DNA of 64,000 nt. Origin: an uncultured Acidobacteriota bacterium. Lineage in GTDB: Bacteria; Acidobacteriota; Polarisedimenticolia; J045. The notes beneath the pieces are model-generated. The model was not told where the DNA came from and made no database searches. It worked only from the letters and a program-made list of their open reading frames with translations. Location: assembly GCA_963702425.1 (NCBI GenBank), contig CAVPCQ010000003.1, positions 1 to 64,000 of the forward strand, written 5' to 3'. The translations under genes were made by a program, and so were the position numbers. Positions 1-29,718 of this stretch are shown here, one piece after another; position 1 is the first letter of the stretch; each line of letters starts with the position of its first letter.

Positions 1-1061
1 ACGATCGTCGCGTTGGCGGCTTTGGCGGCTTCGGCGGTCGTGAAGGCCGGGTCGAGACGCCAGGTCGCCGGCAGCGGCAGACCGGTCAGGTCCTTCACGC
101 CGCCCGCGCCGCCGGTCACTTCGATCCGGTAGGAGGTGCTGGCGCGCAGCGGCTGGGCCGGGGAGATCATGACCTCGGTGCCGCCGATCGACAGGGCGAG
201 TGCGGCCTGCTCCACCGGCGCTCCGCCTGCGTCGAACAGGCGCACCGTGAGCGCGGTCACGCTCGCCGGATCGACCGGCTCGCTGAACGTGATCGACGGC
301 CGGATGTCCAGCGGAACGTTGGTCGTGCCGGGAGCCGGCGAGCTGCTGGCCACCAACGGTACGTCGTTGGTCTGCGGCGTGAGCACCTCGAGTCCCTGCT
401 CGAGGGTTCCGAAGACCTGTGGACGAACGCTCGGATCGTCCCACGACACATCGGCGTTCTTGACCGTCAGCGCCGACCAGCCTGGCTGGGCGTCGGGCAG
501 CGCCTCGACGCGCACGCGGACCTGCCCGCAGGCGTCGTAGAACACCCCCAGGACTCGCAGGCCGGGGTGCGAGAACTCGATCGTCGCTCCCCGGTGACGG
601 AGGTCGCCCGGGACGCCAGGGTCGAAGTTCATGCCGGTGACGGTGAGGAGTGCCGTTTCGCCCGGCTGGATCGAGCGCGGCCGCGAGTCCGTGACGACCG
701 GACGCGGCCAGCCCATCACGATGTTGCTCGCCTCGGTGCTCTCGAGCCCGCCCCCGTCGTAGGCGCGGACGGAGAGGTACCAGGTCGCGCAGTCGGCCAG
801 CCCGTCGATGGTCGCTTCGGGGACGAGCCCGGCGTCCGAAACGGCCGTCATCGCGGTCGGCGCGAGGCCGTAGTAGACGCGGTAGCCCATGAGGTCGGGG
901 TCGACCACCGGGTCCCACACCATCGAGACCGTCCCGGCAGAAGCGAGAGCGCACGCCAGGAGGGCCAGGGCGAGGACCAACAGAAGCCGTCCGGGAACGC
1001 TGAGGAAGCCGGTCCTTCTCGGCCTGTCGCAGCGACCGCGATTTCCGTGCCTGGAGCTCAT
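1..1061 (-). CDS. Secreted FN3 + Ig-like (IPT) + Big_5/SbsA-type Ig-domain protein, 3' end outside window
   Basis: Not in the ORF track because there is no stop in the window; translated by hand from ATG 1061. Signal-like RLLLVLALALLACALASA, then GTVSMVWDPVVDPDLMGYRVYYG...TWYLSVRAYDGGGLESTEASN (FN3), ETALLTVTGMNFD (IPT-like), PAPGTTNVPLDIRPSITFSEPVDPASV (Big_5-like). Collinear paralogue of 1323..2636. Confidence 0.85.
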   Translation of the reverse strand, partial: MSSRHGNRGRCDRPRRTGFLSVPGRLLLVLALALLACALASAGTVSMVWDPVVDPDLMGYRVYYGLAPTAMTAVSDAGLVPEATIDGLADCATWYLSVRAYDGGGLESTEASNIVMGWPRPVVTDSRPRSIQPGETALLTVTGMNFDPGVPGDLRHRGATIEFSHPGLRVLGVFYDACGQVRVRVEALPDAQPGWSALTVKNADVSWDDPSVRPQVFGTLEQGLEVLTPQTNDVPLVASSSPAPGTTNVPLDIRPSITFSEPVDPASVTALTVRLFDAGGAPVEQAALALSIGGTEVMISPAQPLRASTSYRIEVTGGAGGVKDLTGLPLPATWRLDPAFTTAEAAKAANATI

Positions 1062-1110
1062 GCCATACCCCGTACCGATCCCCGCGACCCGAGGGCTTCC
1101 ATTGCGGTTG

Positions 1111-1126
1111 TGCAATCGCCGTTCCA
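1111..1126 (-). promoter_or_regulatory. Sigma-54 (-24/-12) promoter
   Basis: Minus strand TGGAAC-ggcga-TTGCA, 50 bp upstream of ATG 1061; matches TGGCAC-N5-TTGC with correct GG/GC spacing. Confidence 0.75.
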
Positions 1127-1163
1127 TGCGTGGCGTCCCATGGAGAAGCCGGCTGACGTGGGT

Positions 1164-1176
1164 CAAGTGATTGATT
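1164..1176 (-). promoter_or_regulatory. IHF binding site
   Basis: Minus strand AATCAA-tcac-TTG is an exact WATCAA-N4-TTR match, 38 bp upstream of the sigma-54 -24 box, in an otherwise GC-rich region. Confidence 0.6.
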
Positions 1177-1194
1177 CGCAAGCGGATTGCACCG

Positions 1195-1290
1195 CCGGAA
1201 AAGGGCTCGAGCCGGGCCCGATCGAAAGCTCGGCCCGGCTCGATTGCAATTCCGTCATCGGGGTGACGGGGGGCGGCGGTCCGCCCCCCG
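1195..1290 (-). terminator. Two stem-loops downstream of the 1323..2636 gene (probable terminator or 3' stabiliser)
   Basis: Perfect 10-bp stem 1267-1276/1281-1290 with a 4-nt loop, and perfect 12-bp stem 1207-1218/1232-1243 followed on the minus strand by GCCCTTTT. Confidence 0.5.
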
Positions 1291-1322
1291 ACCTTCCCGC
1301 TGGCCATCCTTGGCCCCGCCGC

Positions 1323-2636
1323 CTACCTGGTGTCCGAGCGGCGGTTGTTGGTCGGCGCCCGCGGCGGCAGGTTCTCGGTCGTGAAGCCCGTCCCCTGCGT
1401 GTAAGTGCTCGCGAGCGGGTTGCCGGCCCGATCCTTCGCACGGGGATCGGTGCTGCCACCGACGACGCGGATCCTGTAGGTCGACGTCTCCAGCAGAGAG
1501 GCAGCCGGCGTGATCGTCGCCGTCAGGCCGTCGGCCGACAGGGCCGGCGAACCTGCCGCCTGCGCCACCGGCGTTCCGGAGGAGTTGAGCAGCTGCACCG
1601 TGCTGGTCGTGATCGTCGCCGCGTCCATCGCCTCGCTGAAGATGACCTGCGGCCGGACGGTGACCACGACATTGGTCGCGCCATCGGCGGGGTTGGTGCC
1701 GCTGACCGTAGGCGCCGTGGTGTCGGGTGCGGCAGCCGTCGTGAACCCCGGGCTCTGCGTGTAGTCGGAGGCCATCGTCTTGCCGGTGCTGTCCTTCACG
1801 CCCGAGGCCCCACCGATGACGTTGACGCGGTAGGTCCTCGAGTAGCCGAGGTTGCTGGACGGGGTGATCGTCGCGGTCAGGCCGTCGCCCGAGAGGCTCG
1901 GCGAGCCGGCCGCCTGCGACGCTGCGGCACCGGTCGAGTCGAGCAGGCGTACGGTCGACGTGGTGATCGACGCCGGGTCCATCCGCTCGCTGAAGGTCAC
2001 CGTGGGCCGGACGGTCACCGCGATGTTGGTCGCGCCCGCCGTCGGGTTGGTCGAGGCGACGGTCGGCGCGGCGTTCGTGGTCACGGTGAAGCCGCCGGTC
2101 CTCGTGCCGTAGGAACGATCGACGTTCATCACGGTGACGTCGCGTGCACCGGTCGGCGCCGCGGCGGCGATCTGGATGTCCACCGAGAGCTGCGTGCAGG
2201 AGTTCCGTCGCACGGCGAGGACCGTGATCCCGCTCCCGGAGAACTCCACCGTGGCGCCGGTGTCGTAGGACTCACCGCCCAGCGTCAGCGTCAGCGTCGC
2301 GCCCTGTTCGCCGGAGGACGGCGTTACGGTGTTCACCACCGGGCGCGGTAGCCCGGCGATCTCGTTCGAATAGGACGTCGATTCGAGTCCGCCGGTGTCA
2401 TACGCCTTCACCGCCACGTAGTAGCGGGTGCAGGGATCGAGGCCCGTGAGGGTCGTCGAGGTCGTGTTCCCGACGTCCCTGCTGAGGGGATAATTGCCGG
2501 GAGTGGTGCCGTAATAGACCTTGTAGCCGGCGAGATCGCCATCGGAGACGGGGTCCCACGCGATCCCCATCGTGCCGGCGTACAGCCACCCCGTTGCCGC
2601 GAGCAGGACTGCCAGGGTCGTGACCAACCTTCTCAT
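1323..2636 (-). CDS. Secreted FN3 + IPT/Ig + 2x Big_5 (SbsA Ig-like) domain protein
   Basis: Likely start MRRLVTTLAVLLAATGWLYA (signal peptide; GAGAGGGA upstream). FN3 GIAWDPVSDGDLAGYKVYYG...YYVAVKAYD..GLES; two repeats of APTVxxTNPxxGATNxxVTVRPxVxFSExMD; Thr/Ser-rich. Confidence 0.9.
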   Translation of the reverse strand: MRRLVTTLAVLLAATGWLYAGTMGIAWDPVSDGDLAGYKVYYGTTPGNYPLSRDVGNTTSTTLTGLDPCTRYYVAVKAYDTGGLESTSYSNEIAGLPRPVVNTVTPSSGEQGATLTLTLGGESYDTGATVEFSGSGITVLAVRRNSCTQLSVDIQIAAAAPTGARDVTVMNVDRSYGTRTGGFTVTTNAAPTVASTNPTAGATNIAVTVRPTVTFSERMDPASITTSTVRLLDSTGAAASQAAGSPSLSGDGLTATITPSSNLGYSRTYRVNVIGGASGVKDSTGKTMASDYTQSPGFTTAAAPDTTAPTVSGTNPADGATNVVVTVRPQVIFSEAMDAATITTSTVQLLNSSGTPVAQAAGSPALSADGLTATITPAASLLETSTYRIRVVGGSTDPRAKDRAGNPLASTYTQGTGFTTENLPPRAPTNNRRSDTR

Positions 2637-2706
2637 CGTTTCCCTCTCGGACCCCAAGTGCGGGCCGGCCGTCCCCCGAGACAAGCCGCCTCGACAGCGT
2701 TGCTGT

Positions 2707-2722
2707 ATCAAGGCCCGTGCCA
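2707..2722 (-). promoter_or_regulatory. Sigma-54-like promoter
   Basis: Minus strand TGGCAC-gggcc-TTGAT, 70 bp upstream of ATG 2636; perfect -24 box, -12 box is TTGA rather than TTGC. Confidence 0.6.
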
Positions 2723-2930
2723 CCCGAGGTTTCTCGTGGGCGTGCTCTGAACCTGCCTTTCTTGCTAGACTTAACTCGCCAGGTGGCGCGCCCCAGGCGC
2801 TTCTCGTACCTTCGGGCCGCCCAAATTCGGCGCCCGCATGACGATTCCGTTTCCGGGTGACCGCGGCGGTCGAACCCTCGGATCGAATGAAATCAGCCCG
2901 GCCGTGAGGGCCGCGGGAGAGGAGAGGCCG

Positions 2931-3311
2931 ATGGCCATGGGTTCGCTGGAGCCGACACCTTTCCCGGAGGTCCGCGTGGTCGCCAAGCCCTGGGGACGGG
3001 AGGATTGGCTCGTCGTGGGCGAGCGGATCGTGATGAAGCGCCTGGTCGTCTTCGCCGGGAAGCGCTTCTCGCTGCAGTACCACGAGCGCAAGGAGGAGGC
3101 GTGGCTCTTCGTCCGGGGTCGCGCGAGGGTCACCCTGGCGGAGCGCGAGACCGAGATCGGGCCGGGAGCCGTGATCCACGTGCGGCCGGGAACCGTGCAC
3201 CGGGTGGAGGCGCTCGAGGAGGCCGAGTTCATCGAGGTCAGCACGCCCGAGCTGGAAGACGTCGTCCGGCTGGCGGACGATTTCGGGCGGCCGGAGCGGG
3301 ACGCACGGTGA
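2931..3311 (+). CDS. Cupin-domain protein (mannose-6-phosphate isomerase type II C-terminal-like)
   Basis: GGAGAGGAGAGG RBS before ATG 2931; motifs KPWG, SLQYHERKEE, PGTVHRVEA, EVSTP; directly upstream of PMM. Confidence 0.8.
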   Translation: MAMGSLEPTPFPEVRVVAKPWGREDWLVVGERIVMKRLVVFAGKRFSLQYHERKEEAWLFVRGRARVTLAERETEIGPGAVIHVRPGTVHRVEALEEAEFIEVSTPELEDVVRLADDFGRPERDAR

Positions 3312-3372
3312 TGCGCGGACCAGGGCGCCGGCCACGGCATCTCCCGATGGAGTCCCTCGACGTGGAGACGGG

Positions 3373-4707
3373 ATGACGCTCGCCGAGATCTTCAAGGCCT
3401 ACGACGTACGCGGGGCCTACCCCGACGCTCTCGACGAGCGGATCGCCGAGGCGATCGGCCGCGCGATCGCGGTCCACCTGCGCCCGGCGGGGGCGCTGGT
3501 CGGCCACGACATGCGCGGATCGTCCCCGCCGCTGGCGGCGGCGCTGGTCGAGGGGCTCGCGGCGCAGGGAGTCGACGTCACTTTCATCGGCCTCGCCTCC
3601 TCGCCGCTGGTCTACTTCGCCGGGCGCGAGTTCGACGCCTCGATCGTCGTCACCGCGTCGCACAACCCGCTGCCCGACAACGGGATGAAGATCTGCGGCC
3701 CTGGCGCGCTGCCGATCGGCGGCGCTTCCGGCCTGTTCGAGATCCGGAGGCTCGTCGAGCAGAGCGCTTTTCCGGCCGCGGCGCGGCACGGGCGCGTCGT
3801 CGAGGCCGCCCCGCGCGCCGCGTTCGTCGAGGCCTCGCTCCGCGCACTCGAGGTCCGGCGCCCGGTCCGGGTCGTCGTCGACGCCGGCAACGGCATCGGC
3901 GGCCCGGACTACGCCGAGCTGATGCGGCGCGACACGCCGCTCGCGATCGTTCCGCTCTACTTCGAGCCGGACGACAGCTTTCCGCACCACCACCCGAACC
4001 CGCTCGACTTCGCCACGCTCGACGACCTGCGCCGGACGGTGGTCGCCGAGCGGGCCGACCTGGGGCTGGCGCTCGACGGCGACGCCGACCGCTGCGTGTT
4101 CGTCGACGAGACCGGGGAGATCGTTCCGGCCGACCTGGCGACCGCCCTGATGGCCCAGGACGTCCTGGCCCACCGGCCGGGGGCGACGATCCTCTACGAC
4201 GTGCGCTCCTCGCGCGCGGTGGCGGAGGAGATCGAGCGCGGCGGGGGGCGGGCGGTCGAAAGTCGCGTCGGTCACGCCTACATGAAGCGCACGCTGGCCG
4301 AGCTCGGCGGCGCGTTCGGGGGGGAGCTGTCGGGGCACTACTACTTCGACGCACCCTCCTTCGCCGAGAACACGCTGCGCGCCCTGTGCGCGATCGTGAA
4401 CCTGCTCGACCGGCGGGGCACGACGCTCTCGGAGGCGATGCGGCCGCTCCGGCGTTACGCACAGAGCGGCGAGATCAACGTCCGCGTGCCGGCGGTCGCG
4501 CCGGTGCTCGAGCGGCTCGAGGCGGCCTTCCCCGGCGGCGACGTCTCCCGGCTCGACGGGCTGAAGGTCGCCTTCGACGACTGGTGGTTCAACGCCCGGC
4601 CGTCGAACACCGAGCCGCTGCTGCGGCTGGTGATCGAGGGGAACGACGTCGCCACCATGGAGCGCCGGCGCGAGCAGGTGATGGCGGCCGTGCAGGGGGC
4701 GGCGTGA
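3373..4707 (+). CDS. manB: Phosphomannomutase/phosphoglucomutase
   Basis: IFKAYDVRG, VTASHNP (catalytic Ser), DGDADR (metal loop), GGELSGH, RPSNTEP. Confidence 0.92.
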   Translation: MTLAEIFKAYDVRGAYPDALDERIAEAIGRAIAVHLRPAGALVGHDMRGSSPPLAAALVEGLAAQGVDVTFIGLASSPLVYFAGREFDASIVVTASHNPLPDNGMKICGPGALPIGGASGLFEIRRLVEQSAFPAAARHGRVVEAAPRAAFVEASLRALEVRRPVRVVVDAGNGIGGPDYAELMRRDTPLAIVPLYFEPDDSFPHHHPNPLDFATLDDLRRTVVAERADLGLALDGDADRCVFVDETGEIVPADLATALMAQDVLAHRPGATILYDVRSSRAVAEEIERGGGRAVESRVGHAYMKRTLAELGGAFGGELSGHYYFDAPSFAENTLRALCAIVNLLDRRGTTLSEAMRPLRRYAQSGEINVRVPAVAPVLERLEAAFPGGDVSRLDGLKVAFDDWWFNARPSNTEPLLRLVIEGNDVATMERRREQVMAAVQGAA

Positions 4708-4958
4708 GCGGCCCAGCGAGACGCGACGCGCTGGCCGCGCTGCTGCGCGAGGTGCTGCCGGGCGGCCTGCCGCCGGACTGGGCCGATGAGCGTCCGCTGG
4801 TCGAGGCCGGCCTCGACTCGGTAGGCGTGCTGACCCTCGTCGCGGAACTCGAGGCGCGGCTCGAGCTGCGGCTCGACGGCGCGGACCTGACGGCGGAGAA
4901 CTTCGGCACGCTCGGCGCGCTCACCGCGCTCGTGGCGCGCCGCGCGGAGGGCTCGTGA
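4704..4958 (+). CDS. Acyl/peptidyl carrier protein
   Basis: GTG overlapping the PMM stop; GLDSVG phosphopantetheine motif; LTAENFGTL; 84 aa. Confidence 0.85.
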   Translation: MSGPARRDALAALLREVLPGGLPPDWADERPLVEAGLDSVGVLTLVAELEARLELRLDGADLTAENFGTLGALTALVARRAEGS

Positions 4959-6502
4959 CCGGCGAGCCGTGGCTGGTCCACCAGTTCGTCGAGCGCGCAG
5001 CCGAGCGACGCCCCGAGGCCCCGTTCCTGGTCCAGGAAGGGACGACGACGACCTACGGCGAGGTCGAGGCCGGCGCCAACCGGATCGCGCGCCTGCTGCG
5101 GGGGCACCGGATCGGGCGCGGCGAGCGGGTCGGCCTGCTGGCGCACAACTCGCGGACCTACGTCGAGGCGTATTACGGGATCCTGAAATCGGGCGCGATC
5201 GCGGTGCCGCTCAACACGGCCGCCGACGGCCCGACGCTGCGCGGCTTCCTCGAGGACTGCGGCGCGCGCGCACTGATCGCCGGCCCGCGCTTCGAGAAGG
5301 CGGTCTCCCAGGCGATCGGCGCGCTGCCCGACCTCGGCCTGCTCCTGGTCCCCGACACCGCGCGCATCGAGCCGGTGCCGGCGCACATCCACGCCCTGCC
5401 CCTGGCCGACGCCGCGGCGGCAGAGCGCGCGGAGCGGCCCGACGCCGGGCTCGTCGACCTCGACGTCGCCTCGATCATCTACACCTCGGGCAGCACCGGG
5501 CGGCCGCGCGGTGCGGTCCTCTCGCACCTGAACCTGGTCGCCAACACGCGCTCGATCGTGAGCTACCTCGGGCTGACGGCGGAGGACAAGGTTCTCGACG
5601 TGCTCCCCTTCTACTACGTCTACGGCAAGTCGCTGCTCAACACGCACGCGCTGGCCGGGGGCTGCGTCGCGGTCGAGAACCGGTTCCTGTTCCCGAACAC
5701 CGCGCTCGACACGCTCGAGGACGAGGCCTGCACCGGGCTGTCGGGGGTCCCGTCGACCTTCGCGATCCTGCTCAACCGCTCCAACCTCGCTGGGCGCCGG
5801 CTCTCCGCGCTGCGCTACGTGACACAGGCCGGCGGCGGGATGAGCCCGGAGCTGACCCGGCGCCTGGTCGCGGCGCTCCCCGGCAAGCGGATCTTCGTGA
5901 TGTACGGCGCGACTGAGGCCGGCGCGCGGCTGTCGTGGCTCGATCCCGACCGCCTGGCGGAGAAGCTGGGCTCGATCGGCCGCGCGATCCCGAACGTCGA
6001 GCTGACGGTGCGCGCCGAGGACGGCCGCGAGTGCGAGGTCGACGAGGTCGGCGAGATCTGCGCCCGCGGCTCGAACATCATGAGCGGCTACTGGGGCGAC
6101 CCCGGGGAGACGGCGAAGGTCCTCGACCGCGCCGGCTACCATACCGGCGACCTCGGCCGGCGCGACGCCGACGGCTTCTTCTGGGTCGTCGGCCGCAGCA
6201 AGGACATGATCAAGGCGGGCGCACACCGGATCTCGCCCAAGGAGATCGAGGACGCGATGCTGGAGTTCCCCGAGGTCCACGAGGCGGCGGTGATCGGCGT
6301 ACCGGACGAGATCCTCGGCGAGGCGATCAAAGCCTTCGTCGTCTTCCGGCCCGGCACGACGCCCGACCTCGAGGCGCTCAAGCTGTTCCTCGGCAGGCGG
6401 CTGCCGCCCTACAAGCTTCCCGGCCAGTACGCGGTCCGCGAGGACCTTCCCAAGAACGAGTCCGGCAAGATCATGAAGCAGGCGCTGCGCGAGCAGGCCT
6501 GA
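4955..6502 (+). CDS. AMP-forming acyl-CoA/carrier-protein ligase (class I adenylate-forming enzyme)
   Basis: IIYTSGSTGRPRG, MYGATE, HTGDLG, GRSKDMIK, LPKNESGK; coupled to the ACP. Confidence 0.92.
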   Translation: MTGEPWLVHQFVERAAERRPEAPFLVQEGTTTTYGEVEAGANRIARLLRGHRIGRGERVGLLAHNSRTYVEAYYGILKSGAIAVPLNTAADGPTLRGFLEDCGARALIAGPRFEKAVSQAIGALPDLGLLLVPDTARIEPVPAHIHALPLADAAAAERAERPDAGLVDLDVASIIYTSGSTGRPRGAVLSHLNLVANTRSIVSYLGLTAEDKVLDVLPFYYVYGKSLLNTHALAGGCVAVENRFLFPNTALDTLEDEACTGLSGVPSTFAILLNRSNLAGRRLSALRYVTQAGGGMSPELTRRLVAALPGKRIFVMYGATEAGARLSWLDPDRLAEKLGSIGRAIPNVELTVRAEDGRECEVDEVGEICARGSNIMSGYWGDPGETAKVLDRAGYHTGDLGRRDADGFFWVVGRSKDMIKAGAHRISPKEIEDAMLEFPEVHEAAVIGVPDEILGEAIKAFVVFRPGTTPDLEALKLFLGRRLPPYKLPGQYAVREDLPKNESGKIMKQALREQA

Positions 6503-6530
6503 CCCTTCGCCCGGCCACAGGAGACGCGAA

Positions 6531-7514
6531 ATGCCGTTGTCGCCCGACGCGATCAGGATCGACCCCGCCGCCGAAACGGAGCGGCTCTGCCAGGTCATCG
6601 TCAAACAGGTGCGCGGTGATCTCAAGCGCGCGGGAGGCGTGGTGGGCGTCTCCGGCGGCGTGGACTCCGCGGTCGTGCTGTGCCTGGCTGCGCGCGCCCT
6701 GGGCCCGCAGAAGGTGCTCGGCGTGATGATGCCCGACCGGCACTCCAACCCCGAATCGGAAGCCCTGGCGCGCGAGCTGGGAGCGAAGCTCGGGATCGAG
6801 ATGATCAAGGAGGACGTCACGCCGGCGCTCGAGGGACTCGGTTGCTACCGCCACCAGACCGACGCCGTCCGGCGCGTCTTTCCGGCCTTCGACCCCGATC
6901 GCGACCGCTTCAAGATCCACCTGCCCCCCGGGGTCCTCGATGAGGACCGGCTGAACTACTTCCTGCTGACGGTCGAGTTCGCGGACGGACGCGTGGCGAC
7001 CGAGCGTCTGGGGCCGAAGGAGCTGCTGCAGATCGTCGCCGCGACGAACCTGAAGCAGCGCTCGCGCACGGCGACGCTCTACTACTGGGCCGAGGCGCTC
7101 AACCGCGCCGTCATCGGCACCTGCAACCGCAACGAGTGGGTCGTCGGGTTCATCGTCAAGCACGGCGACATCGCGGTCGACCTCAAGCCGATCCAGCACC
7201 TCTACAAGACGCAGGTCTACGCGCTGGCCGACTACCTCGGGGTGCCGCAGGGGATCACCGCCCGCCCGCCGTCGTCCGACACCTACTCCGCGGCGCAGAC
7301 GCAGGAGGAGTTCTTCTTCTCGCTCCCCTTCCCGCTGCTCGACCTGATGCTCTACGCCTGGGAGCACGGCGTGCCGGCCGAGCAGGCCGCGCCGGTGGTC
7401 GGGCTGACGGCCGAGCAGGTGACGCGCGCCTACCGCGATCTCACCACCAAGAACCGCACGACCGACCACATGCGGCACATGCCGCTCAACGCGGCGCCGC
7501 GGCAGGCGGGCTAG
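6531..7514 (+). CDS. nadE: NH3-dependent NAD+ synthetase-like protein (NadE paralogue)
   Basis: VVGVSGGVDSAV PP-loop, NLKQRSR, GTCNRNE..GFIVKHGD, LYKTQVY, QEEFFF. Confidence 0.85.
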   Translation: MPLSPDAIRIDPAAETERLCQVIVKQVRGDLKRAGGVVGVSGGVDSAVVLCLAARALGPQKVLGVMMPDRHSNPESEALARELGAKLGIEMIKEDVTPALEGLGCYRHQTDAVRRVFPAFDPDRDRFKIHLPPGVLDEDRLNYFLLTVEFADGRVATERLGPKELLQIVAATNLKQRSRTATLYYWAEALNRAVIGTCNRNEWVVGFIVKHGDIAVDLKPIQHLYKTQVYALADYLGVPQGITARPPSSDTYSAAQTQEEFFFSLPFPLLDLMLYAWEHGVPAEQAAPVVGLTAEQVTRAYRDLTTKNRTTDHMRHMPLNAAPRQAG

Positions 7515-7671
7515 CGCGCGAGCGATTCCCGTTTACTTGCCGTGGGGTTATCATGAAAGCGGTCGTCGGGCCCGGGGGCGGGTTGTCACGGCGTTCCCGG
7601 CCCGAGCCGCCCGGCGGCCCGAGTGGCGCGTCCGCCGCCCTCGACGAGTCGGCTTCGGGCGAGGAGATCTC

Positions 7672-8571
7672 ATGCAGCACGGCAGCGTGCTCCGCGGGGG
7701 TGGTCGACTTCGTGTCCTGTGCGTGCTGGCGTTTGCGCTGGCAGTGGCGGGCACGGCCGTGGCCGGTCCCGGCGCGGTCTGTCCGGACGAGGACATGCGC
7801 GCCTACGAGCTGCGGTTCCTGGAGATCACGCCGGCCGGCCCGATCGAGACGGCCGGCCCCCCGGTGGTCGCGCTCGGCAGCGCGGCGCTCGACGCCGACG
7901 GCCTGGCGCGGCTGGCGGCGCGCTTCGGCGGGAAACAGGCCAGCGGGATGGCCTGGGGCTACCTGCTCACCACCGCGCCGGGGGATGAGCTCAACTTCCA
8001 CGGCGACGTCCCATCCCCGTCGGGGCGGCGGATCAGCGTCCACGGCGGCCCCGGCAGCGATCCGAGCCGCCACGCGGTCAAGGTCGAGACCGCCGACACG
8101 AATGCGCTGGTCGAGCTGAGCGACGGCGAGACCCGCGCCTTCCTCGTCGCCGAGAGCGACAAGGGGCGCGTCGTGGCGCTCCTCACCGCCGGTCCCTGCG
8201 GCCCCTTCGGCCTGCTCGCCGAGTCGGCCGGACCGTGCGCGGCGAACGCCCGCTCCGGCGTCGTCCCCCCCGCCCTGGTGAGCAACCCGACGCAGGCCAA
8301 GCCCGGCACGCACCGCTACGTGAACGTCAAAGTCTCCGGCCGGGGACTGGTGCGGCTGGTGGTCACGGAGAGCGGTGCGATCCGCGATCCCCTCCTCATG
8401 GTCGATCGGATGAACGCCGCCGAGGTGGCGCGCGCGCTGGCGATGACGCTGGAAGGCCGGCAATACACGCCCGCCACGGAAGGGGGCCGGCCGATCGCGT
8501 ATTGCCTGGTCGATGCGGTCGCTCCGTTCGCTGCGCCGACGGGGGCGCGCTCGACGCCCCAGGTGCGCTGA
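7672..8571 (+). CDS. Hypothetical exported protein with possible TonB-C-like C-terminus
   Basis: GAGGAG RBS; signal peptide LRVLCVLAFALAVAGTAVA; C-terminal GLVRLVVTESGAI...QYTPATEGGRPI resembles TonB C-terminal domains. Confidence 0.6.
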   Translation: MQHGSVLRGGGRLRVLCVLAFALAVAGTAVAGPGAVCPDEDMRAYELRFLEITPAGPIETAGPPVVALGSAALDADGLARLAARFGGKQASGMAWGYLLTTAPGDELNFHGDVPSPSGRRISVHGGPGSDPSRHAVKVETADTNALVELSDGETRAFLVAESDKGRVVALLTAGPCGPFGLLAESAGPCAANARSGVVPPALVSNPTQAKPGTHRYVNVKVSGRGLVRLVVTESGAIRDPLLMVDRMNAAEVARALAMTLEGRQYTPATEGGRPIAYCLVDAVAPFAAPTGARSTPQVR

Positions 8572-8631
8572 CCGACGCTCCCGCTCGCCGCGGAGCGCCC
8601 CGTGGGCGCGCAGGGACGGTATCCTGTGGGC

Positions 8632-10275
8632 ATGCCGCACCCGCTCGCCGGACAGCCCGTCCCCGCCTCGCAGCTTGCCAACATTCCGCGCCTCGTCGCG
8701 GCCTACTATGCCGACTCCCCCGACGTCGGCATCGCGGAGCAGCGCGTCGCTTTCGGCACCTCGGGGCACCGCGGCTCTTCGCTCCGGGGATCGTTCAACG
8801 AGGCGCACATCCTGGCCGTCGCGCAGGCGATCGCCGAGTACCGGAGCGTCCAGGGAACCGACGGTCCGCTGTTCCTCGGCGCCGACACCCACGCGCTATC
8901 CGAGCCGGCGCGCATCACCGCGCTGGAGGTCCTGGCGGCCAACGGAGTGACGGTGATGATCGACGCGGCCGACGGCACCACGCCGACCCCGGCGGTCTCG
9001 CGCGCGATCCTCGCCTACAACCAGGCCCGGATCTCCGGGCTGGCGGACGGGGTCGTGATCACGCCGTCGCACAACCCGCCCGAGGACGGTGGATTCAAGT
9101 ACAACCCGCCGCACGGCGGCCCGGCCGACGTCGACGCCACCGGGTGGGTAGAGAAGCGCGCCAATGAGCTGCTCGCGGCCGGGCTGGTCGGTGTCCGTCG
9201 GATCCCCTATCCGCGCGCGCGGGTCGCGCCGACGACCCGGCGCTACGACTTCCTGGGCGAGTACGTCGCCGGGCTGGACCGGGTGGTCGACATGGATGCG
9301 ATCCGCGCCTCCGGCCTGAAGCTGGCCGTCGACCCGCTGGGCGGCGCCGGAGTCGCCTACTGGGCACCGATCGCAGAGCGCTACGGCCTCGACCTGACGG
9401 TCCTCAACGACGCCGTCGACCCGACCTTCCGCTTCATGCGGCTGGACTGGGACGGCAAGATCCGGATGGACTGCTCGTCGCCGTATGCGATGGCCGGGCT
9501 GATCGCGCAGAAGGACCGCTTCGACGTCGCCTTCGCCAACGACACCGACCACGACCGGCACGGGATCGTCACGCGCAGCGCGGGCCTGCTGAACCCGAAC
9601 CACTACCTGGCCGTGGCGATCGAGTACCTGTTCGCGCACCGGCCCGGCTGGCGCCCCGAGGCAGGGGTCGGCAAGACGCTCGTCAGCTCGTCGATGATCG
9701 ACCGCGTAGCGACGGCGCTCGGTCGTCGCCTGGACGAGGTCCCGGTCGGCTTCAAGTGGTTCGTCCCGGGGCTGCTCGACGGCTCGCTCGGGTTCGGCGG
9801 CGAGGAGAGCGCGGGCGCGTCGTTCCTGGCCATGGACGGCTCGGCCTGGTCGACCGACAAGGACGGTCTGATCATGGACCTGCTCGCGGCGGAGATCGCG
9901 GCCGTCACCGGACACGATCCCGGCGAGCGCTACCGCGCGCTGACCGAACGCTTCGGCGACCCGGTCTACGAGCGCATCGACGCTCCCGCGACGCCGGCCG
10001 AGAAGGCGCTGCTGAAGAAGCTCTCACCGCGCGCGGTGCGCGCGACGGAGCTGGCCGGCGAGCCGGTCGAGGCGGTGCTGTCGCGGGCGCCCGGCAACGG
10101 CGCGCCGATCGGCGGGATCAAGGTCGTCACCGCGAGCGGCTGGTTCGCGGCCCGGCCCTCCGGCACGGAGGACGTGTACAAGATCTACGCCGAGAGCTTC
10201 CGCGGCGTCGATCACCTGCGCCGCATCCAGGAGGAGGCGCGGCAGGTCGTCGCCGGCGCGCTGGCGGGGGCCTGA
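8632..10275 (+). CDS. pgm: Phosphoglucomutase (alpha-D-glucose-1,6-bisphosphate-dependent)
   Basis: [69 protein letters not shown]. Confidence 0.96.
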
Positions 10276-11040: not shown

Positions 11041-11083
11041 CCTCTCGCGGTGGCGGTGGTAACCTCCGCGCGGAGGTGAGTCC

Positions 11084-12547
11084 GTGCGTGTGCGCTGTCC
11101 GCTCCCGTTGACCCTGGCCCTCGTCCTTCCCCTCTCCGCAGCCCTCCTCGCACTCGCCGCCGCCGGACCCGCTGCGGATCCCGCTGCCCCGCCGACGCTG
11201 CGCCTGGACTACTTCCACACCGGCGACGCGCACGGGGAGGTGTTCGCGCTCGACGGCCTGCTGCTCGAGGGACCGTGGCCGGGGCACCTCGCGCGGGCGA
11301 TCGACGACACCAACCTCGGCAAGTACTACTTCGAGGTGATCGACCGCGCGACGAACCGCGTGCTCTACTCGCGCGGCTTCGCCTCGATCTACGGCGAGTG
11401 GGAGACCACCCCCGAGGCCGAGCGCGTCCACCGGACCTTCCACGAGTCGCTGCGTTTCCCCCTCCCGGCGCGGGCGGTGCAGGTCGTGCTGAAGAAACGT
11501 GACCCGTCGAATGCCTTCCGCGAGGTCTGGTCGGTGATGGTCGATCCGGCGGACCCGACGATCGATCGCAGCGGTCCCGTCCCGGCCACGGTGTGGGCCG
11601 TCGTGGAGAACGGGCCGCCGCGGGACAAGGTCGACCTGCTGCTGCTGGGGGACGGTTACACGGCAGCCGAGATGGACAAGTGGCACGCCGACGCGAAGCA
11701 CCTGGCCGAGATCCTGTTCGCGGCCTCCCCCTTCAAGGAGCGGCGCGCGGACTTCAACGTCTGGGCGATCGACACGCCGGCGGCGGAGAGCGGCGTCTCG
11801 CGGCCGCTCGAGGGGATTCGGCGCCGCTCCCCGATCGGCGCGCAGTACGACGCCTTCGGCTCCGAGCGCTACGTCCTGGTCTTCGACAACGAGCGGATGC
11901 GCGACGTCGCCGCGGCCGCGCCGTACGAGGCGGTCGAAGTGGTCGTCAACGGGCGCAAGTACGGCGGCGGCGGGATCTTCAACAGCCAGGCGACGGTCGC
12001 GTCGGACAACGCCTTCACCCCCTATGTCTTCGTCCACGAGTTCGGACACCACTTCGCCGGGCTGGCCGACGAGTACTACGGCTCACCCGTGGCCTACGCG
12101 CCGCAGGACGCGCGCCCCGAGCCCTGGGAGCCCAACGCGACGGCCGACCCGAAGGCGGGCAAGTGGGCGACGCTCGTCGCCCCGGGGACCGCGCTCCCGA
12201 CCCCGTGGCAGAAGGCCGAGTTCGAGGCGCTCTCGAAGGAGATCCAGGACCGGCGCCGCAGGCTCCGCGCGGAGAACCGCCCGGAGACGGAGATGGAGGC
12301 GCTGTTCCGCGAGGAAAGCGCCCGCTCCGCCCCGCTGCTCGACACGCCGCCGCTGAGCGGAACGGTCGGCGCTTTCGAGGGGGCGATGTACGAGGCCGCC
12401 GGCTACTACCGGCCGCAGACCGACTGCATCATGTTCAGCCGCAACCCGGTCCCGTTCTGCGCCGTCTGCCGGCGCGCGATCGAGCGGGTGATCGACCTCT
12501 ACGCCGTCCCGGCCCGGCCGGAGCCGGCCCCCGCAACGAATCGCTGA
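11084..12547 (+). CDS. Peptidase M64 (IgA peptidase family) metallopeptidase, secreted
   Basis: Signal peptide; TLRLDYFHTG N-domain; KVDLLLLGDGYT; KYGGGG; HEFGHHFAGLADEYY; GAFEGA..YYRP..DCIM..FCAVC. Confidence 0.92.
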   Translation: MRVRCPLPLTLALVLPLSAALLALAAAGPAADPAAPPTLRLDYFHTGDAHGEVFALDGLLLEGPWPGHLARAIDDTNLGKYYFEVIDRATNRVLYSRGFASIYGEWETTPEAERVHRTFHESLRFPLPARAVQVVLKKRDPSNAFREVWSVMVDPADPTIDRSGPVPATVWAVVENGPPRDKVDLLLLGDGYTAAEMDKWHADAKHLAEILFAASPFKERRADFNVWAIDTPAAESGVSRPLEGIRRRSPIGAQYDAFGSERYVLVFDNERMRDVAAAAPYEAVEVVVNGRKYGGGGIFNSQATVASDNAFTPYVFVHEFGHHFAGLADEYYGSPVAYAPQDARPEPWEPNATADPKAGKWATLVAPGTALPTPWQKAEFEALSKEIQDRRRRLRAENRPETEMEALFREESARSAPLLDTPPLSGTVGAFEGAMYEAAGYYRPQTDCIMFSRNPVPFCAVCRRAIERVIDLYAVPARPEPAPATNR

Positions 12548-26241: not shown

Positions 26242-27353
26242 ATGCGGATCGCGTTCCTCTCGAACTCCAACAGCCTCCACCTGAAGGAGTGGGCGGAGTA
26301 CTTCGCGGGGCCGCTCGGCCACGCCGTGACGGTCTTCACGATCCCGGCCCCGGGCGAGCCGTACCGCAACGGCGTCGAGGTCGTTCCCCTCGGCAACCGC
26401 TTCACCGGGAACAAGCTGGCCTGGTTCGCGCTGCTGCCCCGCCTGCGCCGCGAGCTGGCGGCGCGCCGGCCGGACGTTTTCGTCGGCTACCGCGTCGTGA
26501 GCTACGGCTTCCTGGCGGCGCTCGCCGGCTACCGCCCGCTGGTGCTCGCCGCGCAGGGGGGCGACATGGTCTGGCCGCCCGACGACCGGCTGGGGTTGTT
26601 CTGCGTGCGCCCGCCTGCCGCCGCGGCGATCTCTTCAACGCCTGGTCGAGCAACATCCGGGACGAGATGATCCGCCACGGGGCCGACCCGGCGAAGATCA
26701 TGGTCTGCTCGCGCGGGATCGAGCTCTCGCGCTTCCCGCGCCTGCCGGAGAAGGCGCCCGGGCCGCCCCTGATCGCGATGACCCGCTCGCTGCTGCCGAG
26801 CTACAACACGATCCAGTTCGTCGAGGCGATGGCGGTGGTGGCTCGCGAGCGGCCGGACGCCGTCGCCGAGATCGCGGGCGACGGCCCGGAGCGGCCGCGG
26901 CTCGAGGCCCGCGCCCGCGAACTGGGCCTCCACGGCTCGTCGGTCCGGTTCGTCGGGCGGCTGTCACGGGAGGCGATCGTCGCGCTGGTCGAGCGCGCGC
27001 ACGTCTACTGCTCGACGACGATCACCGACGGCCTGCCGCTCTCGCACTTCGAGGCGATGGCGGCGGGCTGTTTTCCCGTCGTGACCGACATCGGCGCCAA
27101 CCGGGTCTGGTTCAAGGACGGCGAGAACGCGCTGCTGGCGCCGGTCGGCGACCCGGCTTCGCTCGGCGCCGCTCTGTTGCGCGCGTTGTCCGACGGCCCC
27201 TTGCTGCGCCGGGCGGTCGCCGCGAACCGCGCGCTGATCGAGCGCGATTTCGACCGCGACGCGAACATGCGGCGGATCGAGGCGGCCTGGCAGGAACTGG
27301 CTACTTCGTATCGGTCCGGTGGAGGTTCCGCACGTCCTGCGGCGAGACGTTGA
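26242..27353 (+). CDS. Glycosyltransferase family 4 (frameshift near 26610)
   Basis: N-half MRIAFLSNSNSLH...AQGGD in one frame; C-half SRGIE, AGDGPER, DGLPLSHFEAMAAG in another. Confidence 0.82.
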
Positions 27354-29718
27354 CCGGCGCCGACGGTTGCGCCTGGGCCTGGGCGGCCGCGGCGTAGTTG
27401 GGAACCGCGTCGTAGGCGAAGGCCGCGTAGTAGTAGGTCGTGCCGTTGGCCAGCCCGGAGTGTACGCAGGAGTCGGGCGCCCCCGGAGCCCCCGGCTTGT
27501 CGCAGGCCACCGCCCCGTCGCTCGCGCTCGTCGGGTATCCGGTGGTCTTGAAGCGCGTCACCGTCCCCCTGCTGTCCGCGCTCGTCGAGTGCGTCCAGTT
27601 GAGGGTGACCTGGGTGTTCCCCGGGGTCGCCACGAAGTTCGTGACCGGCGTCGGCGGCGTCGTGTCCGGGGGGCCGCCCTGCAGCTCGACCGCGCCCATG
27701 TCGCAGGCCCCGTCGCTCCGCGGGTTGCCGTAGAAGTCCTCGCTCGGACACTCGCTGTTGAGCCCCGCGTTCACCCCCCGGTTCTTGGAGGTCGGGGTGT
27801 AGTTGCTGACCGTGCCGTCCGAGACGCTCGGCTTCACGAAGTAGTTGCGCGAGTCGGCCCCGTCGTTGAACTCGAGGCTCGAGGCGGCGGAACTGCACGA
27901 GGAGTAGCAGACGAAGATGCCGTGCCGCTCCTGGCCGTAGGTCGTGTTGATCGAGTCGAAGGAGTAGTCCGGCCCCGAGCCCGAGCCCTTGAAGGTCTGG
28001 TCTGAGTTGGCCATGTTGACGCTGCCGTTGTAGGGGTGGAGGTAGAGGTTGTAGTCGGTCGTCACGTTGGCCCAACTGTTGCCGTAGGTGATCAGCGAGC
28101 CGTTGAAGTTCGCTCCCGTGTCGGCGTCGACATAGTAGATGTTGTTGAAATGGCGGAGTCCCGCCGCCGAGCCGCTGACACCGAACTCGAAGACCTCCTG
28201 CCGCCAGTTGGCGCTCGTCGAGTGGGACACGCCAAAGGTATTGTTGCGGGCGACGATGTCGTTGCCGGCGCCGTTGAAGAACGCCCACCCGTCTCCCGTC
28301 ACCTCGATCACCGAGTTCTGAAGCAGCAGGTAGTTGAGGCCGTTGTCCTGGGCGCTCGTCCCGATGTACGCGCCGTGAGCGCCGGTCTGCGGCTCCGGGA
28401 ACGACTCGGTGGAGCAGCTATAGACCGTGTCGCTGGCGCACTCGACCGTCCGATACCAGGTGAAGACGCGGTGCATGTAGATCCGGTCGAAGATCACCCG
28501 GTCGGTCGGACTGGTTCCCTTGATGCTGTCGAGGGAGAAGCCGTTCGAGTACCCGCCGCGCATCTCGACGTCGTAGAAGCGCAGGCCCGAGTGCGACACC
28601 GCGCCTCCGGGCACCCCGGTCGTCTTCTCGAGGCAGTCGACCTTCTCGACCTGCATCATCGTGCGGGCCCGGGATAGATCGAAACGGCAGGCCGCCCCGG
28701 CGGAGGTCACGCCACTCAGCAGGTGGTTCGATCCGCCGCTCAGAAAGGAGAAGCTCGAGTCGGTGTTGTAGCCGTTGAACTCGCCGGCGACATCCAGGTA
28801 GACGTTGCGGAAGGCGAAGTAGTCCTTGTCGTTCATCGACCAGGTGACGGAGTAGAAGCCGGCATTGCCGGCGACGACACCAACCGACTCGGGCGAGCTT
28901 CCGTCGAAGGTCTGCACCCAGACCCGCGTGCCGTCGTCACACCACGAGCCGGCCACCTTGGAGACGTGCCCTTCGCAGGTCGGCTCGCCCGAGCAGGGGC
29001 ACGCGCCCACCGTGACATGGACGAAGACATCGCGCCCGGATCGGTTCGCATACCACTTGTCCCAGTAGCCGCTCGTCTGCCGGAAGCCGCGCGGCGCGCT
29101 CCAGACCCCGTCCGAGCCGGCCTGCGACTTGGCGTAGGACCAGACCTCCGGGCGGGAACTGCTCTGGGTCCAGGTCACGCCGCCCGGCTTGGGCTTGGTT
29201 CGCGTGATCGTGACCGATCCCTCGGGACCGTCCCCCTTGACCTCCACGAAGCGCGCCGCATCGAGTGTCGTCGGACCCGCGCTGCTGGTCCCGCGGTACC
29301 CTTCCTCGAGCGTCATCGACGAGCCGCTGACGGCCGCGACGCGTGTCCAGTTGAAATAGGGACCCGTCCCGTCGCAGCGCACCCAGTCCCCGACCGCGAC
29401 GCCGGTGACCGCCGACCCGCAGCTCACGGCCGTCGATTTGGCCGTGCAGGTGCAGCCGGACATCACGTTGTCGGTCTTGAGGGCGCCGCCGTTGGTCTGG
29501 GTGATCCCGGAGCCGACGTAGTAGGTGCCGGGCTGGATCAGGCAGCGGTCGCCCGCCTTGACCGCGGTACCGGCACACTTCCCGGGCGAGGCCCACGCCG
29601 CCGCCGCCGAGTTCCCGGTCCCGGTGTTGGAATCGTTGCCGTCCGCCCGCACGTAGTAATCCGTGGCGAGCGCGGGCGTCGTTGCGAGCGCGGCGATGAT
29701 CAAGCACAGGACGCGCAT
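27301..29718 (-). CDS. Large secreted beta-helix-like protein with C-terminal FN3 domain
   Basis: AGGAG RBS; signal MRVLCLIIAALATTPALA; DYYVRADGNDSNTG...CLIQPGTY (pectate-lyase-like N-terminus); NNTF/NNIY/DYNLY; EDFYGNPRSDGACDMGAVE; FN3 PPTPVTNFVATPGNTQVTLNW...YYYAAFAYD. Cys-rich. Confidence 0.85.
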   Translation of the reverse strand: MRVLCLIIAALATTPALATDYYVRADGNDSNTGTGNSAAAAWASPGKCAGTAVKAGDRCLIQPGTYYVGSGITQTNGGALKTDNVMSGCTCTAKSTAVSCGSAVTGVAVGDWVRCDGTGPYFNWTRVAAVSGSSMTLEEGYRGTSSAGPTTLDAARFVEVKGDGPEGSVTITRTKPKPGGVTWTQSSSRPEVWSYAKSQAGSDGVWSAPRGFRQTSGYWDKWYANRSGRDVFVHVTVGACPCSGEPTCEGHVSKVAGSWCDDGTRVWVQTFDGSSPESVGVVAGNAGFYSVTWSMNDKDYFAFRNVYLDVAGEFNGYNTDSSFSFLSGGSNHLLSGVTSAGAACRFDLSRARTMMQVEKVDCLEKTTGVPGGAVSHSGLRFYDVEMRGGYSNGFSLDSIKGTSPTDRVIFDRIYMHRVFTWYRTVECASDTVYSCSTESFPEPQTGAHGAYIGTSAQDNGLNYLLLQNSVIEVTGDGWAFFNGAGNDIVARNNTFGVSHSTSANWRQEVFEFGVSGSAAGLRHFNNIYYVDADTGANFNGSLITYGNSWANVTTDYNLYLHPYNGSVNMANSDQTFKGSGSGPDYSFDSINTTYGQERHGIFVCYSSCSSAASSLEFNDGADSRNYFVKPSVSDGTVSNYTPTSKNRGVNAGLNSECPSEDFYGNPRSDGACDMGAVELQGGPPDTTPPTPVTNFVATPGNTQVTLNWTHSTSADSRGTVTRFKTTGYPTSASDGAVACDKPGAPGAPDSCVHSGLANGTTYYYAAFAYDAVPNYAAAAQAQAQPSAPVNVSPQDVRNLHRTDTK

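Follow-up and report, generated by a model that had tools for sequence, protein, structure and literature searches.

Strand-A-less FN3 domains and strand-A-like C-terminal tails in Acidobacteriota proteins suggest docking by strand complementation in trans

This work examines a 64,000-nucleotide stretch of DNA from an uncultured Acidobacteriota bacterium (positions 1 to 64,000 of contig CAVPCQ010000003.1, assembly GCA_963702425.1), referred to here as the window. The window is the start of contig C3 in the genome examined (5.1 Mb, 42 contigs, 91% complete). Three genes on its minus strand are central: P0001 (1323-2636), P0002 (3-1061), and P0003 (27301-29718), all encoding proteins with a signal peptide and a fibronectin type III (FN3) domain. 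In P0001 and P0002, the FN3 domain that follows the signal peptide lacks its first strand, strand A; in P0001 and P0003, the chain ends in a short tail that resembles this strand. We consider it probable, if short of secure, that the two kinds of end belong together and that the tail of one molecule completes the split FN3 domain of another by donating strand A in trans, giving a tag-and-socket docking system. For an actual homopolymeric fiber we lean toward doubt. A first-pass annotation of the window, made from its sequence, had proposed such strand exchange as the basis of a surface filament or docking system. The features on which the argument depends are listed below (aa, amino acids; Ig, immunoglobulin; AF2, AlphaFold2; pLDDT, predicted local distance difference test; DSSP, secondary-structure assignment).

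1323..2636, minus strand: P0001, 437 aa; signal peptide, strand-A-less FN3, IPT-like Ig domain, two Big_5 domains, strand-A-like tail; acceptor and donor
2577..2636, minus strand: P0001 signal peptide, residues 1-20; predicted cleavage LYA/GT, from family conservation at -1 and +1
2343..2576, minus strand: P0001 acceptor FN3, residues 21-98, beginning at strand B; from Pfam and PDB alignments and AF2 (pLDDT 90-96)
1326..1376, minus strand: P0001 tail ENLPPRAPTNNRRSDTR, residues 421-437 (mature 401-417), proposed donor strand A; from sequence, conservation, and a complex model
3..1061, minus strand: P0002, first 353 of 618 aa in the window; signal peptide, strand-A-less FN3, IPT-like Ig domain, Big_5
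696..935, minus strand: P0002 acceptor FN3, residues 43-122, starting GTVSMVWDP after ASA; from sequence
27301..29718, minus strand: P0003, 805 aa; signal peptide, right-handed beta-helix enzyme-like body, complete FN3, tail; donor only
27370..27657, minus strand: P0003 complete FN3 with its own strand A (PPTPVTNFVAT...); from sequence and AF2/DSSP
27304..27348, minus strand: P0003 tail VSPQDVRNLHRTDTK, proposed donor strand; from sequence, with pLDDT <50 in the monomer model
C41:9434-10231 (L003:3288-4082), plus strand, beyond the left edge of the window: third paralogue, 265 aa; signal peptide, FN3, Ig-like domain, Dockerin_1

N-terminal FN3 domains that begin at strand B

P0001 reads ...LYA/GTMGIAWDP and P0002 ...ASA/GTVSMVWDP at the predicted cleavage site, which places FN3 strand B right after the signal peptide in both. 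The Pfam fn3 profile (PF00041) matches P0001 at 37.5 bits (cutoff, 25) and aligns residues 22-88 with profile positions 15-78 of 84. In phmmer searches of the Protein Data Bank (PDB), mature G1 of P0001 aligned to residue 17 of the first FN3 in 1fnf_A, and I5-S68 aligned to residues 15-78 of 1fna_A. By these alignments, about 10 to 16 residues, making up strand A, are missing from the P0001 FN3. The AF2 model likewise has strand B (residues 3-6) as its first strand and so falls short of the seven strands, A to G, of an FN3 fold. The FN3 of P0002 lies below the Pfam reporting level yet is 45% identical to that of P0001. A third paralogue, whose FN3 starts ASA/ADLTVAWEAS and is also strand-A-less, matches PF00041 above the cutoff (28.7 bits); it carries a Dockerin_1 domain (24.8 bits; Pfam cutoff, 22.9) and no tail, making it acceptor only.

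Small residues at -3 and Ala at -1 are the rule for a signal-peptidase I site. Across 114 family proteins, -1 is Ala in 111, -3 is A, V, T, S, or G in 107, and +1 is Gly without exception. The start of the P0001 family fits such a site, from which we infer the cleavage itself. Together with the alignments, this conservation bears out the observation of the first-pass annotation that the FN3 domains of both paralogues start after the signal peptide without strand A.

P0002 runs off the left edge of the window. Its full length is readable on contig C41, of which positions 4657-8634 are a near-identical reverse complement of window positions 1-3977 that continues beyond the window start. The two copies differ by few mismatches, the first at window positions 1572 and 3607, and the repeat is an assembly overlap or a strain variant; P0001 is therefore counted twice in genome-wide scans. 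On C41 (7575-9431), P0002 has 618 aa and three Big_5 stretches and ends in ...AAAQSQSLGLGE, with no tail at the C-terminus. The left-edge gene, which the first-pass annotation could read only in part, is thus acceptor only. P0002 orthologues (C41:7575-9431; L007-L019) share another conserved C-terminus, ...F[AST]TE[VL]S...Q..[SL][LI]G[LV][GA]E, which may be an anchor or another docking end. Further acceptor-only FN3-Ig proteins, at L029:9212-10759 and in L030-L034, have a dockerin-like DxNGDG motif and a conserved Cys-containing end (...CW.G..WS...CP..L).

C-terminal tails that resemble strand A

P0001 ends in ...ENLPPRAPTNNRRSDTR and P0003 in ...VSPQDVRNLHRTDTK. The family consensus of the tail is PPxxVxN[LN][RH]R[TS]Dxx-COOH, about 14-16 residues, and it is preceded by the usual ...D-x-T-P-P... 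inter-domain linker, as before a next FN3. The corresponding segment within P0003, strand A of its internal FN3, reads PPTPVTNFVATPGNTQVTLNW; DSSP assigns a strand at mature residues 675-682 of the AF2 model, in agreement with the earlier statement that this complete FN3 has a strand A of its own. The RRxD version of strand A was never internal (0 in 286 proteins). A search for the ending N.{1,2}R.D.[KR] among the 24829 open reading frames (ORFs) of >=100 aa in the genome retrieved only P0001 and P0003, plus the P0001 duplicate on C41. A loose strand-A regular expression run on the same genome gave 1553 matches and was uninformative at its high GC content.

Both ends are kept in 103 of the 120 listed homologues, with the start AG[TS]xSLAWDP and the end PPxxVxN[LN]RR[TS]Dxx; these two-ended proteins span architectures of about 322, 435, 560, and 670 aa. 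The remaining 17 (11 with the start only, 5 with the tail only, and 1 with neither) are mostly cut gene calls. Two tail residues, R413 and D415, do not vary in alignment A1 (52 rows), and exactly two residues follow the invariant Asp in 87 of the 103 two-ended members. With that length, a count that runs from the Asn of the tail across both ends to the Trp of strand B comes to 14; the Asn-to-Trp spacing within complete FN3 domains of the same proteins is also 14 in 17 of 19. The tail thus ends where the mature acceptor begins. This match, with the conservation, substantiates the proposal that the orphan tails of P0001 and P0003 resemble the missing strand. A hidden Markov model (HMM) built from 49 complete C-terminal FN3 domains was tried as a common frame for placing the ends and dropped: N-terminal FN3 domains matched it weakly, at 3-20 bits and with offsets that varied, and the tails fell in no common place. 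Placement instead relied on direct residue counts and on Pfam and PDB coordinates.

Predicted structures of the tails and of the complex

The AF2 model of mature P0001 (52-row alignment) has a mean pLDDT of 94.2 and four confident domains, followed by 17 residues of coil at pLDDT 62-69. Mature P0003 (22 rows) was modeled at a mean of 87.7, with a beta-helix body, a complete FN3, and a last stretch of 16 residues at pLDDT <50. The coil and low confidence of the tails in these monomers indicate neither docking in cis nor fold-back on the adjacent domain, the latter having been named in the first-pass annotation as an outcome that would count against its idea. Foldseek places the P0003 body among beta-helix glycoside hydrolases, polysaccharide lyases, and phage depolymerases (top match 3vst_A, E 9.6e-9, TMq [query TM-score] 0.34, then GH136 enzymes; Pel9A, 1ru4, at rank 21). 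With TM-scores this low, the models define the body as a beta-helix by fold class. The three role classes first proposed do exist: P0001 is acceptor and donor, P0003 a donor only with a beta-helix enzyme fold, and the left-edge gene acceptor only.

For the complex, we predicted one pair, the P0001 FN3 (mature 1-80) with the P0001 Big_5 domain plus tail (mature 285-417), using an alignment made for this analysis. The interaction prediction score from aligned errors (ipSAE) was 0.74, 0.73, and 0.68, as against 0.00 for the best of three controls; the ipSAE mark applied is one that 58 of 80 solved complexes attain, as do 2 of 110 mismatched pairs. At least 98% of contacts are shared between the runs, and partner pLDDT is >=91. 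Tail residues 402-415 contact FN3 residues 2-8, 10-12, 54-60, and 64-73 (mature numbering), and the closest pairs (4:413, 5:412, 6:411, 7:410, and 8:409) run antiparallel to strand B. The prediction supports a tail site at the position of FN3 strand A, with the donor C-terminus beside the acceptor N-terminus. For the P0001 FN3 and P0001 tail, the peptide is thus predicted to occupy the strand-A groove in trans (ipSAE 0.73 versus 0.00), as had been envisaged.

One FN3 residue was considered in its own right. P0001 mature residue 57 (window about 2406-2408), just before the FN3 strand-F AYD motif, is Lys in 105 of 107 family members; in seven acceptors of other phyla, the same position holds Thr, Ser, or Arg. 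A pairing of this Lys with the tail Asp was rejected, as K57 lies near P408 rather than D415 in the model and the residue is not Lys in the other-phyla acceptors.

Portable tails and one-ended proteins

Proteins with one end only make sense only in trans, and both kinds exist. In every related locus whose downstream DNA reaches far enough (10 of 10: L007-L013 and L017-L019), the P0001 orthologue is followed by an acceptor-only gene; L014, L015, L016, L020, and L021 are cut or broken and lie outside this count. Donor-only genes adjoin acceptor genes in L029 and L102, the former pairing a beta-helix enzyme with an FN3-Ig-dockerin-like protein. The tail is found in 11 of 21 P0003 orthologues, and the shorter forms end otherwise. 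Seven of these shorter homologues (P0267, P0268, P0272, P0273, P0275, P0276, and P0281; 695-731 aa) are without FN3 and tail. Shorter forms end in other short motifs (...GPHRTDIRPGTKLR, ...GVRLKGVAAGGAQ, and ...IRPGTKIR), which are perhaps alternative C-terminal tags.

The tail also ends proteins of quite different content: GHL15 proteins (L086 and L100), a Beta_helix+TIG protein (L098), a Malectin+fn3 protein (L114), an Ig_Rha78A_N protein (L113), the 'YRQFSEGCPVNGQP' family (L090, L096, L117, L118, and L121), small proteins of ~110 aa, and others. Each genome of the same genus (4 of 4) has about 2-4 tails. Within the family, 12 of 15 genomes contain a match; hits beyond it look fortuitous. 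Of the 60 stretches from a metagenome scan, about 19 look real. Because so many unrelated secreted proteins carry this tail as a portable tag, a docking system is better supported than a fiber. Of the earlier proposal of a surface filament or docking system, then, the docking half has gained ground over the filament. A natural fusion, with the tail directly before an acceptor-type FN3 in one protein, was sought in 286 proteins and found in none. A representative search with P0001 was dominated by giant Big_5-repeat proteins, so covalent tandem arrays of the same domain types do exist.

Related pairs occur in other phyla. The C-terminal pattern NLR[IVL].{0,4}$ is present in 6 of 2202 ORFs of loci L031-L084, compared with a background of 1 in 24829 in the Acidobacteriota genome. 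A tail gene lies just downstream of a gene with a strand-A-less N-terminal FN3 in four loci: in L044 (Manganitrophus), a Polysacc_lyase-like protein ends ...NPPTNLRVQ; in L045 (Syntrophales), a protein without a Pfam match ends ...NLRIIQ, after an FN3 acceptor; in L066 (Syntrophales), a Beta_helix protein ends ...NLRIRFR, after an FN3+Malectin acceptor; and in L080 (Syntrophobacterales), a Beta_helix protein ends ...NLRIVQ, after an FN3+TSP3+H_lectin acceptor. Locus L078 has both ends in one protein of 922 aa. In L053, a Chondroitinase_B/Pel9A-like protein ends ...NLRVQ, after a lipoprotein with FN3 as its last domain; this FN3 has ~11 residues before the Trp and is A-less as judged by eye only. 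The other-phyla tails are shorter and without the turn, and exact abutment of the two ends is therefore a feature of the Acidobacteriota type. We rejected the idea that these pairs are simple gene splits, given that in L044, L045, L066, and L080 the acceptor is upstream and the signal peptides are separate.

The Manganitrophus acceptors (L044:9629-12145 and L054:9809-12145) are strand-A-less FN3 proteins that end in a hydrophobic stretch plus basic residues (...LILVLSLAALRKGIKK). They are probably membrane anchored, with the tail-bearing lyase-like gene downstream.

A model for docking in trans

Our reading of these data is that signal-peptidase cleavage would leave a socket, an N-terminal FN3 that starts at the Gly of the A-B turn without strand A. 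The plug would be the last 14-16 residues of some secreted proteins, comprising strand A plus the turn (6-16 residues across phyla). Lying antiparallel to strand B in trans, the plug would rebuild one FN3 from two chains. In tandem arrays, the preceding domain leads into an FN3 through strand A, and the chain exits through strand G at the opposite pole; from this topology, a trans-completed FN3 should mimic a continuous rod and not a hairpin dimer. As P0001 bears both ends, it would be able to chain head to tail and so copy a tandem Ig/FN3 array without covalent links. P0002 and the third paralogue (FN3-Ig-dockerin) would serve as acceptor-only chain ends or anchors, and P0003, with its resemblance to beta-helix polysaccharide enzymes, as donor-only cargo or cap. 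In the fiber form of the model, the two-ended proteins of 322, 435, 560, and 670 aa would self-assemble; the other form is one-to-one docking. We infer in either form that the proteins bind one another outside the cell, having crossed the outer membrane. Since the locus is an exopolysaccharide gene cluster, the likely role would be to build or decorate the cell-surface matrix. The most extended version combines all of these elements: a chaperone-free tag-and-catcher made from an FN3 split at the A-B turn, present in several phyla, in which two-ended proteins form modular fibers with enzyme caps and acceptor-only anchors and organize an exopolysaccharide matrix. We would place this version slightly below an even chance.

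Several results weigh against docking in trans. The P0001 FN3 was modeled alone without strand A at pLDDT 90-96, and such a domain may be stable unaided; the missing strand does not by itself demand a donor. A strand-A-less first FN3 is moreover common in many phyla without a detected tail: 48 of 54 loci (L031-L084) have no strict tail within ~10 kb, and P0132 (2697 aa) combines a strand-A-less first FN3 and complete later FN3 domains with no tail. The complex score reflects compatibility, not binding, and may partly be memory of the FN3 fold. A mutual-information test with average product correction, run on 103 sequences (~60 effective) between 16 tail and 175 N-terminal columns, did not show enrichment in FN3, which held 12 of the top 40 pairs against 17.8 expected by size; this test has little power, since the tail positions that matter most do not vary. 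Assembly genes, whether for a chaperone, an usher, or another factor, were not identified, although no systematic search for co-occurring machinery was made. Docking in trans also accounts neither for how premature joining in the periplasm is avoided nor for how the outer membrane is crossed, and a short, portable, charged, and disordered C-terminal motif resembles a sorting signal as well.

This last resemblance leads to the main rival, in which the C-terminal tail serves as a signal for sorting, secretion, or attachment that some machinery reads, its likeness to strand A comes from a truncated FN3 linker, and the FN3 is a stable six-stranded variant in no need of a partner. The tail is indeed portable, on at least 8 unrelated protein contexts, and disordered in monomer models; its R and D are invariant, making the motif unlike an ordinary strand A; and the confident model of the lone FN3 and the frequency of strand-A-less first FN3 domains without tails are as this explanation would have them. 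P0003 also contains a 'choice-of-anchor Q' domain (26.6 bits; NCBIfam cutoff, 25), from a set of families named for their varied C-terminal anchors. Known signals of this kind have a recognizable form, however: in PEP-CTERM, LPXTG, and GlyGly-CTERM, a motif is followed by a transmembrane helix and a basic cluster, and the C-terminal domain (CTD) of the type IX secretion system (T9SS) is a module of ~80 aa. No transmembrane helix or basic cluster follows the tail, the chain stopping two residues past the Asp without a hydrophobic stretch, and no sorting-domain model of NCBIfam was matched (E up to 0.1). The P0001 and P0003 tails belong to none of the PEP-CTERM, LPXTG, GlyGly-CTERM, or T9SS CTD types. 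Nor does a sorting signal lead one to expect a tail length that matches the acceptor gap, differing tails in other phyla (NLRIxx at the C-terminus) that are still strand-A-like and adjoin strand-A-less FN3 genes, or a complex prediction of 0.73 against 0.00 for the best control. We regard this explanation as unlikely, while giving it appreciable weight.

Two further explanations were considered. In one, the tail completes the FN3 of the same molecule as a cis ring, with no intermolecular assembly. The presence of both ends on one chain in 103 of 120 homologues would suit such a ring; the short inter-domain linkers and the AF2 monomer, in which the tail is coil (pLDDT 62-69) beside four well-modeled domains, would not, and donor-only proteins (P0003, L086, L098, and others) and acceptor-only proteins (P0002 and the third paralogue) cannot act in cis. 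We judge the ring very improbable. In the other, the tail has no function and is what remains of a downstream FN3 since lost, as its position after the usual ...D-x-T-P-P... linker might suggest. A remnant would hardly keep R and D invariant in 52 aligned sequences or a fixed length after the Asp in 87 of 103, recur on unrelated proteins, or be retained in 4 of 4 genus genomes and 12 of 15 family genomes; this explanation has next to no credence with us.

Comparison with known strand-donation systems

As a class of mechanism, donor-strand complementation is already well known. In the chaperone-usher pilin, the missing strand is the C-terminal G and the donor an N-terminal extension. The cited accounts of chaperone-usher pili (Pap/Fim and the archaic CupE/Csu) describe an incomplete Ig-like subunit that is completed by a strand of the next subunit (PMC10104325, PMC12996565). 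Strand donation that completes an Ig-like fold is the principle shared with the proteins described here, with head-to-tail polymers as the outcome in those pili; here, by contrast, the strand missing is A, the donor is C-terminal, and the fold is FN3 and not pilin. Neither the PapD-like chaperone (PF00345) nor the usher (PF00577) had a match in the 91% complete genome, whereas control genomes matched the former and the E. coli control the latter.

The type V pili of Bacteroidia (FimA/Mfa) come closer in polarity: the N-terminal strand of the mature subunit is absent after proteolysis, and the C-terminal strands of another subunit fill the groove. Type V pilins have a pilin fold of two domains, and Rgp-type proteases trim them from lipoprotein precursors. 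P0001 differs in having no lipobox Cys at LYA/GT, so that ordinary signal peptidase would create the socket, and it had no FimA-family match in Pfam (E up to 0.1). In cohesin-dockerin cellulosomes, as proposed here, a short C-terminal module on varied polysaccharide enzymes docks to scaffolds; there, two complete domains, a dockerin on the cargo and a cohesin on the scaffold, meet surface to surface, whereas here a 14-residue strand would restore a single domain that two chains make up jointly. FN3 itself has reportedly been reassembled from two fragments by engineered complementation (Dutta, Batori, Koide, and Koide, 2005, Protein Sci 14:2838), a laboratory construct, unlike the natural system proposed here.

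Donor-strand fibers that form without a chaperone are described for TasA, archaeal threads, bundling pili, cannulae, and the Pam pili of the candidate phyla radiation (CPR) (10.1101/2022.03.14.484220, PMC9715654, PMC9245690, PMC12518558, and PMC13278184). As far as these sources describe them, they share with the present case usher-less strand donation in matrix or surface filaments, with some tip or anchor subunits one-ended; they differ in having unrelated folds and an N-terminal donor, and none of the accounts cited includes a split FN3. Full-text literature searches turned up no account of this protein family or of a tail-and-socket system based on a split FN3. The window contributes a version from a diderm Acidobacteriota, with a tail that includes the A-B turn, two-ended proteins, and acceptors on Ig-rod and dockerin proteins, not membrane anchors.

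If docking in trans is correct, it would represent a new building principle in bacterial surface and matrix biology, a single small domain rebuilt from two chains outside the cell, by which enzymes, lectin modules, and Ig-rod proteins are joined without chaperone, usher, sortase, or dockerin. It would explain the common and unremarked start of FN3 domains at strand B after a signal peptide along with a class of orphan C-terminal tails, and it would supply a simple rule to predict which secreted proteins assemble together. Protein engineers would gain a natural tag, a very short peptide, and a small domain to catch it.

Genomic context

The genes are surrounded by an exopolysaccharide-type cluster. 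Among 23 window ORFs scanned, we found Wzy_C, a MurJ-like flippase, GT1, Bac_transf, two asparagine synthases, a polysaccharide deacetylase, PMT_2, and two phosphomannomutases. Also within the polysaccharide cluster is a secreted-type Peptidase_M64 (IgA-peptidase family; 426 bits) at window 11063-12544 on the plus strand. On C41, the gene order is P0002, the third FN3 paralogue, and then a histidine kinase and a sigma-54-type (NtrC-like) response regulator. The latter two genes (C41:10300-12825, plus strand) lie directly 3' of the three FN3 paralogues and may be regulators of the FN3-paralogue operon.

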